Assembly (NCBI RefSeq): GCF_006345805.1 | Contig: NC_043003.1 | Span: forward strand, 16,182,001-16,246,000 | Source: Octopus sinensis | Lineage: Eukaryota | Length of the DNA stretch: 64,000 bases | Direction of reading: 5' to 3' | In this document: in pieces, positions 2,945 through 54,982 of the stretch | Layout of the letters: every line of letters begins with the position of its first letter | How positions within the stretch are numbered: position 1 is the first letter of the stretch | Notes under the pieces: model-generated | Seen by the model: only the letters and a program-made list of their open reading frames with translations | Database searches by the model: none | Told to the model about the DNA's origin: nothing | Made by a program: the position numbers and the translations under genes

Positions 2945-3354
2945 TTGGGTTGGCAACTAAGTTCCCACGGTTTTTTTTTTATTATTTTGGAACTTATTGC
3001 GTTTTTTTAATTTTGGAATTTATTTGTTTTAGAGAATTCTATTTTTGAAGCATTTTGGAATCTTTTTTTTTTCTAGTTATTTTAGTTAATTTTTGTTTAT
3101 TTTCAGATTATTAAAATGGAATGTCAAGTTAAGAAAAACGAGTATTTTCGACACCTCCTTTATTTTGCTTTTAATCAAGGTTACAAGGCCGCGAAAGCTG
3201 CTCGCAATATTTGCGCTGTGTATGGAGAGGTTGCCATAGCTGAAAAAACCGCTCTTGATTGGTATGCCAAGTTCAAAAATGGAGATTTTGATCTCAAAGA
3301 CGCACCCCGTTCTGGCCGTCCCGTTGAGTTCGATGAAGAGCGATTAAACCAACT
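2945..3354 (+). mobile_element. Mariner transposon 5' half (TIR plus transposase N-terminal HTH), truncated by a SINE
   Basis: TA|TTGGGTTGGCAACTAAG terminus. ORF from 3116 MECQVKKNEYFRHLL...ICAVYG...WYAKFKNGDFDLKDAPRSGRP. Confidence 0.9.
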
Positions 3355-3455
3355 TTGCGTGGCACCTTGGGCAGGTGTCTTCTACTATAGCCTCGGCCCG
3401 ACCAAGACTTGTGAATGGATTTGGTAGACGGAGATTGAAAGAAGCCCGTCGTATA

Positions 3456-6145: not shown

Positions 6146-6330
6146 CATAATATATATATATATATATATATAGCCATCTGGTTCGCCAGCCCTCAGTCAA
6201 ATGGTGCAACCCATGCTAGCATGGAAAGCGGACATTACACGATGATGATATATATATATATATATATATAATTATTTTTTAAAAGGAGCTTCTACAGGAC
6301 TAGAACTGTTTCATTCAAAAGAAATCATCA

Positions 6331-6385
6331 AGAGCTTCCTGATGATTTCTTTTGAATGAAACAGTTCTAGTCCTGTAGAAGCTCT
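6331..6385 (+). ncRNA. Type I hammerhead ribozyme
   Basis: agagcttc-CTGATGA-t(ttc-tttt-gaa)t-GAAA-cag-ttctagtc-ctGTA-gaagctct. 8-bp helix I, 4-bp helix III, GUA cleavage after 6377. U.U mismatch at the base of helix II. Confidence 0.8.
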
Positions 6386-6485
6386 TCTATAAAATAAATT
6401 AATTTACTCTGCTATGTATTTAGTACCTTATTTACTGTGGTTAACCCCGACTCAATCCGGGACCTACATATATATATATATATAT

Positions 6486-7065
6486 AAAGTGGTGAAGGCC
6501 GGTTTATGAGATTACCCTGTGTTTCCCGTCCATAAAGGGTTTAGATTATGACATATCGTCAGATCCCTAACCCTGTTGACCCAAGACCTCTTCATATTTT
6601 GAAGAGGTCTTAGGCTAACAGGTTTTGGGGTCTGACGATACCGCCATAAAGCTAAACCCTTTATGGACAGGAAACCCAGCGTAATGCAATAAACCAGCTT
6701 TCCTCACTTATAATATATACTGTTCTACATCTTAGAGTGAGTTTCTTCTCTGGATTTATGTTTTCTACAAACGATCCTTTTTGTTCTCTGGCCAGAGTTT
6801 TTCACAGAGATCATGTGTTTTTTGTTAAATAGCTGACCAGTAAATTGCGCTTCTGTATATTTACGGAAACCACGGATCTCTCATAAATATGGAACGATTT
6901 GACCTTGCTGGTCCACCAAAAACATCCCCACGCCATCCAACGAACTGTACACCCGCATGCTGCTGGAAAGAATATTAAAAAGCCATATTTTGGAGAGGTC
7001 TTAGGCCAACAGGTTTTGGGGTCTGACGATACGCCATAAAGCTAAACCCTTTAAGGACGGGAAAG
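6486..7065. mobile_element. Penelope/retrozyme-like element: inverted repeat plus 391-bp direct repeat, three hammerhead-like motifs
   Basis: Imperfect about 105-bp fold-back centred near 6597. CTGACGA..GAAA at 6632 (+), 7023 (+) and 6508-6567 (-). The minus copy has helix I gggat/atctc and a GUA site. Confidence 0.7.
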
Positions 7066-9864: not shown

Positions 9865-9964
9865 NNNNNNNNNNNNNNNNNNNNNNNNNNNNNNNNNNNN
9901 NNNNNNNNNNNNNNNNNNNNNNNNNNNNNNNNNNNNNNNNNNNNNNNNNNNNNNNNNNNNNNNN
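9865..9964. other. Assembly gap (100 N)
   Basis: Run of N directly after a (TAA)n tract. Confidence 1.
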
Positions 9965-13764: not shown

Positions 13765-14338
13765 TTGGGTTGTTCGGAAAGTTCGTGCCGATTTTTAAAG
13801 GAAAGAAAAAGGTCAATAAATACTTGGCCTTACCCAAGCTTTACCAGGTGCTCATGAACGACGGATTTTGATAGGTTGAGGCTTTCTGCCAATTCTCGGG
13901 TTGTGCAATGAGGGTTATTCTCAATTAATGACTTAATTTGGTCATCATCTGTAGTGGATGGTCTGCTTGATCGCTCTTTATCAATAAGGCTACAATCTCC
14001 AGCTCGGAACCTTGCGAACCACTTCCGTACAGTTCTTTCGGATAAAGAAACATCACCGTAAACTGCGCATATTTCTTTTATTTGTTTGTAAGGCATTTTT
14101 CCCTTCACGGAAAATGAAAAGCAACAAGTGCCGAAAATGAACTTTCTTATCTTCATTTTAAAGGGTTACAGAATTAATACAGGTTATAGGAACATAAACC
14201 TTCTTCCACGAAAAGATAGTTTAAACTGTGCTCTAAATGGAGGTGTAGTCAAATCCTATTTTATGGACTCAACCATGTTCTAAAATAAGTCGAAAGGTAA
14301 GCTACTATAAATCAGCACGAACTTTCCGGACAACCCAA
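13765..14338 (-). mobile_element. Internally deleted mariner (both TIRs, TA TSD), retains N-terminal HTH
   Basis: TA|TTGGGTTGTTCGGAAAGTTCGTGC ... GCACGAACTTTCCGGACAACCCAA|TA. ORF 13830-14156 ICAVYGDVSLSERTVRKWFARFRAGD..RSSRP. Confidence 0.92.
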
Positions 14339-23691: not shown

Positions 23692-23741
<50 letters not shown>

Positions 23742-24117
23742 ATATATATATATAGCATATATGGGTACAGGATGTCACCAACAGTAAACAACATGAAATA
23801 CGAAAAGAAATGAGTTCAATATGCAAACAACGAGAGAAACAAATGGAAAACAGGACAAATAATACAAAGAACGCCCCTTCGTCAGTTGTCGGCTGCCTAT
23901 CTGCTCCTCATTTCGAGCATTGAACGACAATGTGAGTCTTCGAAGACAGTTTCTCTCATAAGTACCAAAATGAAATTTTGGATTTATGGAGGGTCAAATT
24001 TGGAGAAAAAAAAACAGGGCAGTGGAGACATACAAGGAAACCGAACGAAAACAAACACGGAGGGTTGTTAGACCAGAACAAGAGTAAAATAATGAACGCT
24101 CGAGAAATATTTTCTTT

Positions 24118-24174
<57 letters not shown>

Positions 24175-24349
24175 GAATACGACGGACTTCCACACAATTT
24201 CCGCGTACTGAATTCACACCCAAGACACTGGTTGGCCCGGGGCTATATTAGAAGACGCTTGCTGAAGGTGTCGCGTACGCGTAGGGGGACTAAACCAGAA
24301 AGCACATGATTGTAAACTGATTTTCTTAACCATGCAGCCTCAATAATAC

Positions 24350-24986
24350 TGGACTTTAGCTGTTCTTTCTAGCGTAAAGGATTCCTATGATGGAAACCTC
24401 TTAATGTGTTTAAATGTACACTGTATTTTACATGAATAATATATAGTCTATTGACTAATTTTTTTATACGCTAGGCCACTGGTAGTAAAAATTTCTAAAA
24501 TCTTTATTACCCTGATATTATGTATAATGAGTTCCAGTAGATTCGTTCGAAGAATTTGCCGGCATCTTTTTGCTGCCGACAAAAATGACTGCGCTTGCGC
24601 GGTGGATTTGAAAAATATTAAAACGTATAAGTAATGAGTCACATGCTGGATTGGCCTCATTGTTTATATATTTAATCTTTGGCGTCTCTGTTGATGAAGA
24701 CTTCGCCTGGTAAATTATTTTATTTACTAAAATAAGTCAGAAACCATGGTCCAGGAAAGAGATGGTAAATGCTTTTATTTTTCATTGCCTTCGAGAATTT
24801 ATCCCTAATTAATGGTTTGGACTTTAGCTGTTCTTTCTAGCGTAAAGGATTCCTATGATGGATATCTCTTAATGTGTTTAAATGTGCATTATTTTATATG
24901 AATAATATATAGTCTATAGACTAATTTTTCTATACGCTAGGTCACTAGTAGTAAAAATTTCTAAAATCTTTATTACCCTGATATTA
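24350..24986 (+). mobile_element. Retrozyme/pLTR-like element: about 170-bp terminal direct repeats, 468-bp period, one hammerhead-like motif
   Basis: Repeats 24350-24520 and 24818-24986. Motif tctg-TTGATGA-agactt..aagtca-GAAA-ccatg-GTC-cagg at 24687-24755. Ends at (TA)n. Confidence 0.75.
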
Positions 24987-25285
24987 TTAATTATATATAT
25001 ATATATATATATAAGTAATTGTTAAAGGGGACAATGTTAAGGCAAAGCAAACATCTCAAGTCATATACAGTTGTTATACCGTCATATACCGTCTTGGCTA
25101 TAACCTTAGAGCCTTTATAATCTGTTACAGCACTTACATAGGGTACATAATCAAACTAAACCCCCATATTTTATATATATATATATATATATAAAGTTAA
25201 TCCAAACAAGAAAACACAAAAAAACACAACAACGCGAGGACGTGGAACAAATATAGTATTATTGGACGCTAAGGAAAGAAGGAGG

Positions 25286-25320
25286 ATTTAACGTTTCGAG
25301 CGGAGCTCTTCGTCGGAAAC
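25286..25320 (-). ncRNA. Minimal hammerhead variant (CCGACGA core), family F
   Basis: Minus strand gttt-CCGACGA-a-gagc-tcc-gctc-GAAA-c-GTT-aaat. The element spans about 25193-25390 between TA runs. Confidence 0.65.
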
Positions 25321-25680
25321 ATAGGAGAAGGAAAGATCCAGAGAAGGGAAGACAGAGGAAAAAAATCGCCAACGGTACACACGAGGTCATATATATGTGT
25401 GTGTGTGTGGTGTGTGTGTGTGTATGTATAGTAATCGTTTTTACACTGCTATAAGGCTGTGTGATACACAGCCTTATAAGGGAGATGTATATACATTGTG
25501 TGTGTGTGTATATATATATGTATATATATATATATATATGAACGCGCCGCGCATTCACACAAGAATATATATCCAGATGCGAAAGTGGTTTTACGGTACG
25601 ACTTCGACGTGATAGCTGAAACAAGTAAAGACTACTTTTACACATTTACACACCCAAGTGCTCATGTGCGTGTGTTTTTC

Positions 25681-25722
<42 letters not shown>

Positions 25723-25896
25723 CGTGCAATTAGATGCGTAACTATGCATGTTTGTAATTGAGTGTGTAGCTAATGTTATAGAAGCAAATCGAAATGTCAC
25801 GATGTATTGTTTTCTCATGTGTGAAATATATACAAAGGCATATAACATATTGCCATGTGCGTACGCATACACTCATTCGCGCTAATAGATAGATAA

Positions 25897-27407: not shown

Positions 27408-27519
27408 CATATAATTCAATAAAAAAAAACGAGAAAAAAAATGTCGATAAGAAAAAACAACGCGTGGACGTGGTGCATACAAAGTATTAATAAGACGCTC
27501 AGAGAAGGAATGAAAGGGT

Positions 27520-27554
27520 ATTTTACGTTTCAAGCAAAGCTCTTCTTCAGAAAC
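27520..27554 (-). ncRNA. Minimal hammerhead, family F
   Basis: Minus strand gttt-CTGAAGA-a-gagc-ttt-gctt-GAAA-c-GTA-aaat. Confidence 0.7.
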
Positions 27555-27815
27555 AGGAGAGAGAGGAAAGTCCAAGAGAAAAGGAAGATGGAGGAAAAAA
27601 ATCGCCAACAGTCCACATGTGGTTATAGACAATAATTCAAGTAAGCAGATAAAAGTTTGGATTTTAACGTATAAAATGTATATACACGTACACGCGCAAA
27701 AAGAGAGAACAGACTCAAAATGTTCAAATGATAAACAGTCAGGTATATATATAGTCCAGAGCAAACTTAATCAGATTACATAGATAGAAAGAATTAGAGG
27801 GGAGAAAACGTTACA

Positions 27816-36588: not shown

Positions 36589-36935
36589 CTTCTCTGCACT
36601 AACCACCATACCTCAACCGTCTTACTCTGAACATCATCCCTTTAATATTATTCCCTTTTGCACGTCTTTCCTGGAGATGTTGACCCGAAATAGTGTGAAT
36701 AAAACATTAACATCAATCTCGCCATATTCATATTAAGAAATTCCATGTAGACGTTCTCTTAATTTAAATTTTTGTTTTATTTTCTTACGAAAATTCTTAT
36801 GATGGATCTCCTTATCATCGAGGAACTTTCTTATTAAAAGCACATCCTTAGCCCATCTTCAAGATTAGCCCTTGTCTTTTAAGTCAGAAAATATTTCAAC
36901 CCCCAACAACAAAAGGTTCAAATGAGGCGTCATAC

Positions 36936-37538
36936 CTATTTCTTTATTACCCAGAAGGGGCTAAACATAGAGGGGGAAAGCAAGGTCAGACAAAGGGATT
37001 AAGTCGATTATATCGACCCCAGTGCGTAACTGGTACTTAATTTATCGACCCCGAAAGGATGAAAGGCAAAGTCGACCTCGGCGGAATTTGAACTCAGAAC
37101 GTAGTGGCAGACGAAATACCTATTTCTTTACTACCCACAAGGGGCTGAACACAGAGAGGGCAAACAAGGACAGTCAAACAGATTAAGTCGATTATATCGA
37201 CCCCAGTGTGTAACTGGTACTTATTTAATTGACCCCGAAAGGATGAAAGGCAAAGTCGACCTCGGCAGAATTTGAACTCAGAACGTAGTGGCAGACGAAA
37301 TACCTATTTCTTTACTACCCACAAGGGGCTGAACACAGAGAGGGCAAACAAGGACAGACAAACAGATTAAGTCGATTATATCGACCCCAGTGCGTAACTG
37401 GTACTTATTTAATCGACCCCGAAAGGATGAAAGGCAAAGTTGACCGTGGCGGAATTTGAACTCAGAACGTAACGGCAGACAAAATACCGCTAAGCATTTC
37501 GCCCGACGTGCTAACGTTTCTGCCAGCTCGCCGCCTCG
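36936..37538 (-). mobile_element. SINE family B trimer (184-bp period) with 13-bp TSD
   Basis: GAAATACCTATTTC junctions at about 37119 and 37303. TSD TGAGGCGTCATAC at 36923-36935 and 37539-37551. Confidence 0.92.
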
Positions 37539-39327: not shown

Positions 39328-39365
39328 CTGTCCGACGAACGGGAACGTGAAACTCCGAGTAACAG
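39328..39365 (+). ncRNA. Very compact hammerhead variant (38 nt)
   Basis: ctgt-CCGACGA-acg-ggaa-cgt-GAAA-ctccga-GTA-acag, within a 75-bp insert between TA runs that ends in AATAAA. Confidence 0.65.
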
Positions 39366-42341: not shown

Positions 42342-43068
42342 ATGGCTACTCCTCATGAAAAGGCACAATGTGTATCCTGGTTTATTGAGACAAAATCGGA
42401 TGTTCAGACAATGTGAGAATCTGGGGATCAGAACATCCCCATGTGTCTGGGGAGCTTCAACGGGATAGTCCAAAAGTGAATGTGTGGTGTGGAATCATGT
42501 GCAATCGAATAATTGGTCCATTTTTTTTCAACGAGGCAACAATTACTGCAGACGTTTACCTCGACCTTCTGACCGAATATGTGGTACCACAACTGATTGA
42601 TTTACGACCAACCATCATTTTCCAGCAAGATGGTGCACCACCACATTGGGGACGGCATGTTCGTCAGTTCCTCAATCAAACATTTCCAGACCGATGGATT
42701 GGAAGGGATGGGTCAATTCCATGGCCAACGCGTTCGCCAGATATCTCTCCCTTGGACATCTTTTTATGGGGTTATGTAAAAGATACCGTGTATCAAACAA
42801 AGATACGAGACAATGCTGACTTGAAGCAAAGGATTCGTAATGCCATTGCTACCGTTGATGAGGCTATCCTACAGCGAACATGGCAAGAAATCGAGTACCG
42901 TCTTGATGTGCTTCGCGCAACTAATGGTCCCCATATTGAGGTCTATTAAATAACAGTTAGAAAAAACTTTAATAAACAATTATTACAATAAAACAAATCT
43001 GGTTAAGCTATCTCGTCAACTGCCTTTGTAATAAAATTTTAAAATTGTAGAGAGACTTTATGGACACC

Positions 43069-43944: not shown

Positions 43945-44100
43945 ATATAAAATAGTGTACATTTAAACACAAGAGAAAACTCTTTTGTGTTTAAATATAA
44001 GCTATTTTATATTGAGAATATGTTGTCTATTGACTTTTTATACATGCTAGGCCACCGGTAGTGAAATTTCTAAAAATATTCGCCATCCTATATATTTTAC
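43945..44100 (+). repeat. Fragment of the 24350 family with terminal inversion
   Basis: TAAAATAG..TTTAAACACAAGAG-aaaa-CTCTTTTGTGTTTAAA..CTATTTTA hairpin, then GCTAGGCCAC.GGTAGT.AAATTTCTAAAA as at 24470. Confidence 0.7.
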
Positions 44101-44280
44101 TATTGTGGGTTCGAGGTCGTTGTGAATACTTGGTAGGGAAGAAGAAGAAGAAGAAGAAGAAGAATGTGGGAGTGCCATGACAGTAGTATGTAAATGGTCA
44201 TTGCCCGCTGTGGATGGTAGTAGTAATTGTTGAATTCCTGAAACATCTCTTTTGAATATTTTGTTCATAAAATTTACGTA

Positions 44281-53921: not shown

Positions 53922-54341
53922 GCCAAGGCGGCGAGCTGGGAGAAACGTTAGCGCGCCGAGCGAGAATGCTTAGTGGTATTTTGTCTGCCGCTGCGTTCTG
54001 AGTTCAAATTCCGCCGAGGTCGACTTTGCCTTTCATTCTTTCGGGGTCGATAAATTAAGTACCAGTTACGCACTGGGGTCGATGTAATCGACTCAATCCG
54101 TTTGTCTGTCCTTGTTTGTCCGCTCTGTGTTTAGCCCCTTGTGGGTAATAAAGAAATAGGTATTTCGTCCGCCGCTGCGTTCTGAGTTCAAATTCCGCCG
54201 AGGTCGACTTTGCCTTTCATCCTTTCGGGGTCGATAAATAAGTACCAGTTACGCACTGGGGTCGATGTAATCGACTCAATCCGTTTGTCTGTCCTTGTTT
54301 GTCCTCTCTGTGTTTAGCCCCTTGTGGGTAGTAAAGAAATA
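53922..54341 (+). mobile_element. SINE-B dimer with 12-bp TSD
   Basis: TSD GGTATGTTGGTG at 53910-53921 and 54342-54353, junction near 54159. Confidence 0.9.
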
Positions 54342-54982
54342 GGTATGTTGGTGACTGTGGTTGTGATGATGATGAGAGCAATGGTAATTGCGTTTGTGAT
54401 GGCGGCGATTGTAACCATGGAATGTAAAAGAAGGACATTGTAGGCTTGCATCAGGTTTGTAGTGTTAATGGGTGATGGTCACTTTTTGTTGCAGCTACTG
54501 CAACTTATTGTTGTTGTTGTTGTTAGAGGAGAGCTGGAGGAGGGAATGGTCTATTGGTACTGGCAACGATGTGCAGCCACTACGTTCTGTGATAATGTTG
54601 TTGTTGTTGTTGTTGTTCTTGTTCTTCTTTTTCTTCTTCTTCTTCATGTTGGCATTCGCAGTATTTGAAACACTGTACCAAATAATAGAAAGATTATATC
54701 CACGCGCAAACACACACACACACTCACACTCACATACACACTCACACTCATATACACACCACAGACACACACATACACACACAAACACACAGAGAAAGAG
54801 AAGAACTTACACACTCTAAGATAAATTCAATTCACATACATACATATATACATACATATCTGTGTGCATATATGTATATATATGCATATATGCCTAAATG
54901 TACATATATGTATATATACTTACATGTACATATATATATCTATATATATATCTATATATATATATAAAAGTGTATAAAATAC

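Follow-up and report, generated by a model that had tools for sequence, protein, structure and literature searches.

Penelope-like elements (PLEs), non-autonomous members included, are described as inserting at (TA)n targets without a clear TSD and as leaving 5'-truncated copies, partial tandems, and inverted 5' copies (PMC8557442); this insertion pattern includes Penelope of Adineta (PMC3846280). For the Poseidon element PAc, nicking of AT-rich DNA and initiation at two sites downstream of the hammerhead have been reported in vitro, with cleavage not being needed (PMC11167929). The hammerheads of PLEs carry an extra base after A9, a G10.1–C11.1 pair, and a palindromic loop 3 (PMC4209133), and a circular template has already been proposed for both PLEs and retrozymes (PMC4209133, PMC7229834). 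A pseudoknot between stems I and II was found in about 40% of the hammerhead set of Perreault et al. (2011) (PMC3088659), and natural changes at position 3 include U3–A8 and a U3 variant from halophiles (PMC7151607). In the giant squid, 235 hammerhead matches have been counted only (PMC6962438). The literature surveyed yielded no description of an octopus or cephalopod retrozyme, and the family reported here may already be catalogued in repeat libraries.

We analysed a 64,000-nt stretch of the Octopus sinensis genome (hereafter, the window), in which the locus at 24350–24987 is probably a copy of an abundant, non-autonomous element of ~468 nt of the non-LTR-retrozyme type, moved in trans by a PLE. 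The window is AT-rich and dense in microsatellites and dispersed repeats, with mariner-type fragments and with SINE-like repeats that resemble those of octopus. Remnants of mariner/Tc1 transposases are located at 3086–3424 (+), 13833–14165 (−), and 42389–42946 (+), showing Pfam matches to HTH_48 (E 7e-19 and 6e-11) and a weak match to DDE_3 (E 8e-4) below the cut-off. Head-to-tail arrays of a 183–184-nt SINE-like unit occur at 36932–37488 and 53975–54346 (3.0 and 2.0 copies, respectively; 93–96%), and an assembly gap of 100 N bases lies at 9865–9964. Among 145 of the 456 window frames, chosen by sequence complexity, Pfam gave only mariner-type matches and none to RT or GIY-YIG, and the element itself contains no RT/GIY-YIG open frame.

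A BLAST search of 24350–24986 on the window aligned 24350–24520 with 24818–24987 at 93.6% identity (E 1e-70), the spacing of the repeats being 468 nt and, after a 2-nt deletion, 466 nt; nine substitutions and one 2-nt indel separate them over 172 nt. The locus is thus 637/468 = 1.36 units long, in agreement with the earlier note, made from the sequence alone, which had described a more-than-unit-length copy of a 468-nt unit. The unit has a GC content of 33% and contains no long open frame, and the single frame scanned showed no Pfam match. The term "circularly permuted", also used in that note, is correct as a description of the sequence but misplaces the boundary, which in the family lies at 24521|24522 and not at 24350. 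As the preferred end is at phase 24521 (described below), the locus is best drawn as a full unit behind a truncated copy (Table 1).

Table 1. Features of the locus and of the second copy (window coordinates)
Feature	Position	Strand	Basis
Unrelated dispersed repeat adjoining the insertion on the left	24172..24340	.	10 further BLAST matches in the window
Upstream unit copy, 5'-truncated (pseudo-LTR of the partial tandem), 172 nt	24350..24521	+	93.6% match to 24818–24987
Complete non-coding unit, 466 nt long (first spacing, 468 nt)	24522..24987	+	repeat spacing; ends at the family's preferred 3' end
Type I hammerhead-like ribozyme	24675..24763	+	descriptor search, shuffles, family changes
Candidate 4-bp loop I/loop II pseudoknot, GGCG (24681–24684) with CGCC (24704–24707)	24681..24707	+	complementarity
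Core box TTGATGA, U3 opposite G8	24691..24697	+	sequence
GUC triplet (GTC)	24749..24751	+	sequence; cut predicted between 24751 and 24752
TAATT + (AT)n at the 3' junction	24988..25013	+	letters identical to the family loose-end consensus at phase 24521
Inverted arm belonging to the diverged second copy	43945..43976	−	BLAST, nhmmer, inverted-repeat comparison
Second copy, forward part (approximate unit phases 24392–24536)	43974..44114	+	nhmmer E 1e-8; 79% over the BLAST piece

The TAATT motif precedes only two of the 218 (AT)n tract starts in the window; it is present at the terminus of the element and absent from the internal junction of the tandem. A 31-nt hairpin is located ~10 nt before the preferred end. 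No TSD of at least 5 nt was found between 24325–24352 and 24985–25045, and the left side of the insertion showed neither an (AT)n tract nor a TSD. The dispersed repeat adjoining it there looks SINE-like. When the two 172-nt repeats were tested for identity at insertion, their private changes numbered about 3 and 7 (p 0.34), and the comparison of the upstream repeat with the rest gave p 0.07; two of the differences recur as variants in the family. The (AT)n tract of the 3' junction lies within a near-palindrome (24984–25025, arms 81–94% complementary), and what lies to its right may be one end of a different element in the opposite orientation. Further right is a dispersed repeat (25195–25390) with additional copies at 27456–27626 and 1715–1856, in which reverse-strand hammerhead-like boxes were seen by eye. 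The only other TAATT(AT)n junction is on the − strand, at the end of the left arm of a head-to-head inverted repeat between two (AT)n tracts at 6248–6486 (arms 6269–6333 and 6337–6401, 65 nt, 89% complementary), which includes a minimal hammerhead-like box at 6339 and looks like an unrelated inverted insertion of the PLE type. Minimal hammerhead-like motifs also occur at 39332 and 43234 (+), with CCGACGA and CTGAAGA boxes, GAAA, and GUA, as described for PLE terminal repeats.

The single hammerhead-like motif of the unit, with a U3 core variant and a GUC site as the earlier note had read it, was recovered with our own descriptor. When both strands of 3000 dinucleotide-shuffled units were searched in the same way, such a motif turned up in only 2. 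Helix I is formed on both sides of the motif and contains an internal loop; helix II (24699–24738) has a G10.1–C11.1 pair, an extra A on each side, an internal loop, and a distal hairpin; and the GAAA box is at 24740–24743. Helix III consists of 2 bp closed by a palindromic CATG loop, which is self-complementary, so that pairing between two molecules is predicted to be possible. The candidate pseudoknot was picked post hoc, 4% of random loop pairs being expected to have any 4-bp complement; its GGCG strand is kept in the loose-end consensuses of both sister subfamilies, and no covariation was seen. Rfam gave no match at the gathering score across the window; in 23700–25800 it gave 33 matches with E up to 10, none of them a hammerhead.

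The whole unit folds better on the + strand than on the − strand (−105.3 versus −91.3). When the 18 letters that the majority of the family has in place of those of the window were applied, the circular fold changed from −105.3 to −116.8 kcal/mol (z from −2.7 to −5.2), an improvement attained by none of 150 random sets of changes of the same type, and the middle part of the unit likewise folds better with them. Within the motif, 24711 T>C and 24726 A>G form a compensatory pair in the distal hairpin of helix II, 24709 G>A converts a G–U pair into A–U, 24687 T>C yields CCTG/CAGG in helix I, and 24679 T>A together with 24759 G>T yields the distal part of helix I. Since the majority letters keep or restore pairs and improve the fold, the modelling indicates that selection acts on RNA structure in the family and that the copy at 24350–24987 is a decayed one. 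For the majority motif taken by itself, the constrained hammerhead fold reaches −18.6, against −20.3 for the minimum-energy structure; as judged from these predictions, a non-minimal hammerhead fold would fit a reliance on dimerisation or tertiary contacts, yet it also counts against a hammerhead.

As for C at position 3, whose presence in the consensus was a check proposed in the earlier note, it was found in a sister subfamily only (loose end before 24692, in 28 contigs of run X1 and two of run X11, described below), and the close relatives seemingly share U3. Position 24691 does not appear among the 40 of 97 variant positions listed, for which the lowest best share is about one half, and its absence suggests that U3 is probably common among them. 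Because the copy in the window has one ribozyme, several helix-weakening changes, and U3 opposite G8, no monomer can be freed from it by cutting twice, and it is probably a dead end.

The family was surveyed in public sequencing runs, 20 of 24 listed runs, under four organism labels, containing some of the stretch and two containing half or more. None of the runs that contain it is recorded as RNA, a record that does not bear on expression. Contigs from four runs were aligned to 24290–24817 (one unit plus flank); X1 and X5 are DNA runs, and X11 and X20 are guessed to be RNA. The aligned contigs numbered 3642 in X1 and 3224 in X5; the RNA-guessed runs contributed 72 and 45. Because there are thousands of them, most at 80–99% identity, the sequences point to a large, diverged family. 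Exact-pattern scans for more copies gave no match in metagenome, genome, and viral contigs. The joint from 24817 to 24350 was found in 8 contigs of X1, 6 of X5, and 1 and 0 of the RNA-guessed runs, and in 22 X1 contigs the stretch preceding 24350 is that of 24790–24817, from the unit itself. As this joint recurs and other copies continue upstream in this way, position 24350 marks a truncation and not a family boundary, and the tandem is no isolated event. At least six listed contigs from other loci (table records 2, 3, 4, 25, 26, and 27) cross 24521|24522. Other joints skip 61–163 nt of the middle, indicating internally deleted variants, and two listed joints connect opposite strands (24362/24398 and 24483/24746).

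Among the 24 of 700 loose ends listed, the top one in both DNA runs is behind 24521 and has the consensus TAATT(AT)n, matching the letters that follow 24987 in the window. It was found in 60 of 853 partly aligned contigs of X1, 40 of 685 of X5, and one of X11, and in none of the X20 entries listed. Across 24521, the summed depth, which is not a copy number, falls from 70,436 to 3,570 in X1 (about 20-fold) and from 18,522 to 4,209 in X5 (4-fold). A second loose end, also among those listed, is located behind 24430 and followed by (TA)n (15 X5 contigs), 91 nt from the first. Since the end at phase 24521 is carried by a minority of the partly aligned contigs, no position is tabulated as one at which many molecules start or stop, and the second copy in the window runs past this phase, the end appears from these contigs to be preferred and not exclusive. 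The check for varied start phases on one circle, proposed in the earlier note, thus gave a mixed picture, with one end strongly preferred (phase 24521, second site 24430) and the other variable. The X1 depth medians are 159,512 and 96,728 in the last 170–300 nt before the preferred end and 6,711 in the middle, and the sister subfamilies depart from the reference at 24688–24692; judging by the contigs, most copies of the family seem to fall short of a full unit and to have a preferred 3' end. In the RNA-guessed runs, the depth profiles track those of the DNA runs (Spearman 0.78–0.96 over 27 bins), although contigs can show neither the level nor the form of an RNA. Such a profile, as expected for copies in longer transcripts or DNA carry-over and not for a flat circle, was not counted as evidence, and the 24817 to 24350 joint seen in one contig of an RNA-guessed run is also genomic.

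The related fragment with an inverted end at 43945, pointed out in the earlier note, is composed of a forward match and an inverted arm, which together form a head-to-head inverted repeat (43945–44012; 32-nt arms, 88% complementary, 4-nt loop). On its outer side the arm ends at unit phase about 24430–24433, coinciding with the second loose end, and there adjoins a short TA run. The forward part contains no hammerhead portion and continues about 15 nt past phase 24521; extension beyond about 44114 scored 46, at the level of shuffles (best of 300, 45).

Based on these findings, it is likely that the element is moved in trans by a PLE. The PLE protein would nick AT-rich or (TA)n DNA, and reverse transcription would be primed at a set site inside the element RNA, at phase 24521 and, secondarily, at ~24430. 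Copying would then proceed 5'-ward and usually halt early, and at 24350–24987 it would have covered one full unit and 172 nt more, giving a partial tandem. The predicted ribozyme cut is 236 nt upstream of the preferred 3' end, whereas a primed, self-cleaved linear monomer would end copies at 24751. A preferred end this far beyond 24751 matches the internal initiation reported in vitro for PAc. The template would have held more than one unit of sequence with the ribozyme site intact; it was somewhat more probably an uncut tandem transcript, or the product of template jumping, than a ligated circle (our tentative second choice) on which copying began at a fixed internal site. An uncut tandem transcript or a template jump would give the same DNA as a circle. 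The partial-tandem pLTR, which the earlier note had offered as an option, is borne out by the full unit behind a 5'-truncated copy, the preferred 3' end beside (AT)n, and the inverted 5' pieces (43945–44012 and the two opposite-strand joints). Together with the non-coding nature, the variable 5' ends, and the head-to-tail junctions at other loci, these features correspond to the PLE insertion pattern. Against PLE-mediated movement stand the small share of partly aligned contigs that end at 24521, the 91-nt spacing of the two ends, which differs from the described 30–40-nt tails, and the lack of canonical hammerheads in the (TA)n-targeting Naiads (PMC8557442). The missing RT and GIY-YIG matches in the frames scanned, the TAATT confined to the terminus, the left side devoid of (AT)n and TSD, the non-minimal hammerhead fold of the majority motif, and the negative Rfam search also count against the proposal. 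A bolder version, in which a high-copy retrozyme family has its circle copied by the PLE protein from the fixed site 236 nt past the cut, the slow U3–G8 hammerhead and the loop–loop pseudoknot keeping the circles closed, is unlikely. If it were true, thousands of copies with a mappable start would offer a direct test of whether the partial tandems of PLEs come from circular templates.

The concentration of depth in the last 170–300 nt and the departure of the sister subfamilies at 24688–24692 could also be explained if the locus derived from a longer autonomous PLE, as a 5'-truncated copy of its terminal repeats (the pLTR together with internal repeats), the 468-nt unit being no element of its own; hammerheads are indeed normally located in pLTRs (PMC4209133). 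This explanation is nevertheless rather improbable, as the sequence upstream of the hammerhead returns to the terminal sequence both here and in the contigs from other loci that cross 24521|24522, the unit contains no coding remnant, and its middle part gains in folding from the majority letters. Reverse transcription of an abundant circular RNA from arbitrary starts, more than once round, would account for a copy that spans the uncut ribozyme site and exceeds one unit, as well as for the stable fold of the unit as a circle, and related animal retrozymes make circles (PMC7229834). However, the copies would then be random circular permutations, and the preferred end with (AT)n, the steep fall in depth beyond it in two DNA runs, and the terminal TAATT, which is outside the circle as this copy defines it, make such an origin improbable to a high degree.

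Helitron/helentron elements also leave truncated head-to-tail copies. The 31-nt subterminal hairpin and the missing TSD would suit a non-autonomous rolling-circle DNA element of this type, with an incidental likeness to a hammerhead, but the CTRR end is absent, complete hammerhead geometry is rare in shuffles, the family changes preserve pairs, and the + strand is the better folding one, so that we give this proposal still less weight. Hardly any weight is left for a TRIM with two 170-nt LTRs or a one-off local duplication, the two cases that the earlier note had set against its own reading. The direct repeats of ~170 nt both begin with TG; however, the stretches compared have neither a CA end nor a TSD of at least 5 nt, no primer site or purine tract was seen by eye, and other copies run through 24350. 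Both cases were rejected, as no fixed LTR boundary exists at 24350 and the joint recurs in 8 and 6 contigs of the DNA runs.

The preferred reading, a non-autonomous element moved by a PLE, can be compared with the metazoan non-LTR retrozymes (Cervera and de la Pena 2020, PMC7229834). As far as these are described in that source, the octopus family has in common with them a non-coding, head-to-tail unit of a few hundred nucleotides with low GC, a type I hammerhead with a short helix III and a palindromic loop, a stable fold, and no LTR, PBS, or PPT; by sequence, it can accordingly be counted among the non-LTR retrozymes. Its unit of 468 nt is slightly above their range (150–450 nt) and inside the range of 51–972 in a 2026 preprint. 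Unlike the described retrozymes, the copy at 24350–24987 has one ribozyme only, its cleavage being predicted and circles possible, and most copies of the family seem shorter than a unit. The family further differs by its U3–G8 core, by a basal A·A of helix II, and by the pseudoknot that its loops may form. Li, Clavereau and Pollet (2026; bioRxiv 10.64898/2026.07.22.740005), who sampled four invertebrates (three insects and one coral), likewise propose an origin from PLE pLTRs and a PLE protein as the mover, and describe monomers and short multimers as common. Their "active retrozyme" consists of two consecutive units with complete ribozymes, whereas the present copy has one, which bars it from being an active copy but does not bar the family.

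With the PLEs, namely Poseidon PAc (PMC11167929), Penelope of Adineta (PMC3846280), and Naiad/Neptune and non-autonomous Chlamys, for example, MRC1 (PMC8557442), the octopus element shares, in the features given in those papers, the partial tandem, the 5' truncation, the inverted 5' copy with a palindromic junction, what may be two alternative 3' ends downstream of the hammerhead, and the AT-rich or (TA)n targets. It differs from them in having no RT–GIY-YIG frame and in the wider spacing of its ends, and its motif has extended helices I and II in contrast to the minimal hammerheads of PLEs. The hammerheads of PMC3088659 and PMC7151607 include stem I–II pseudoknots and changes at position 3. 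The octopus motif resembles them in its U3 and its candidate pseudoknot; however, U3 faces G8 uncompensated, and the candidate would pair two internal loops with each other. The family adds one animal case to the hammerhead-bearing, Penelope-dependent repeats, and the mapping of its ends supports the view that the PLE machinery moving retrozymes starts inside the RNA and not at the ribozyme cut. Being short and abundant, with a defined 3' end, it is a convenient test case for how PLE partial tandems are regenerated, whether from a circle, a tandem transcript, or a template jump.
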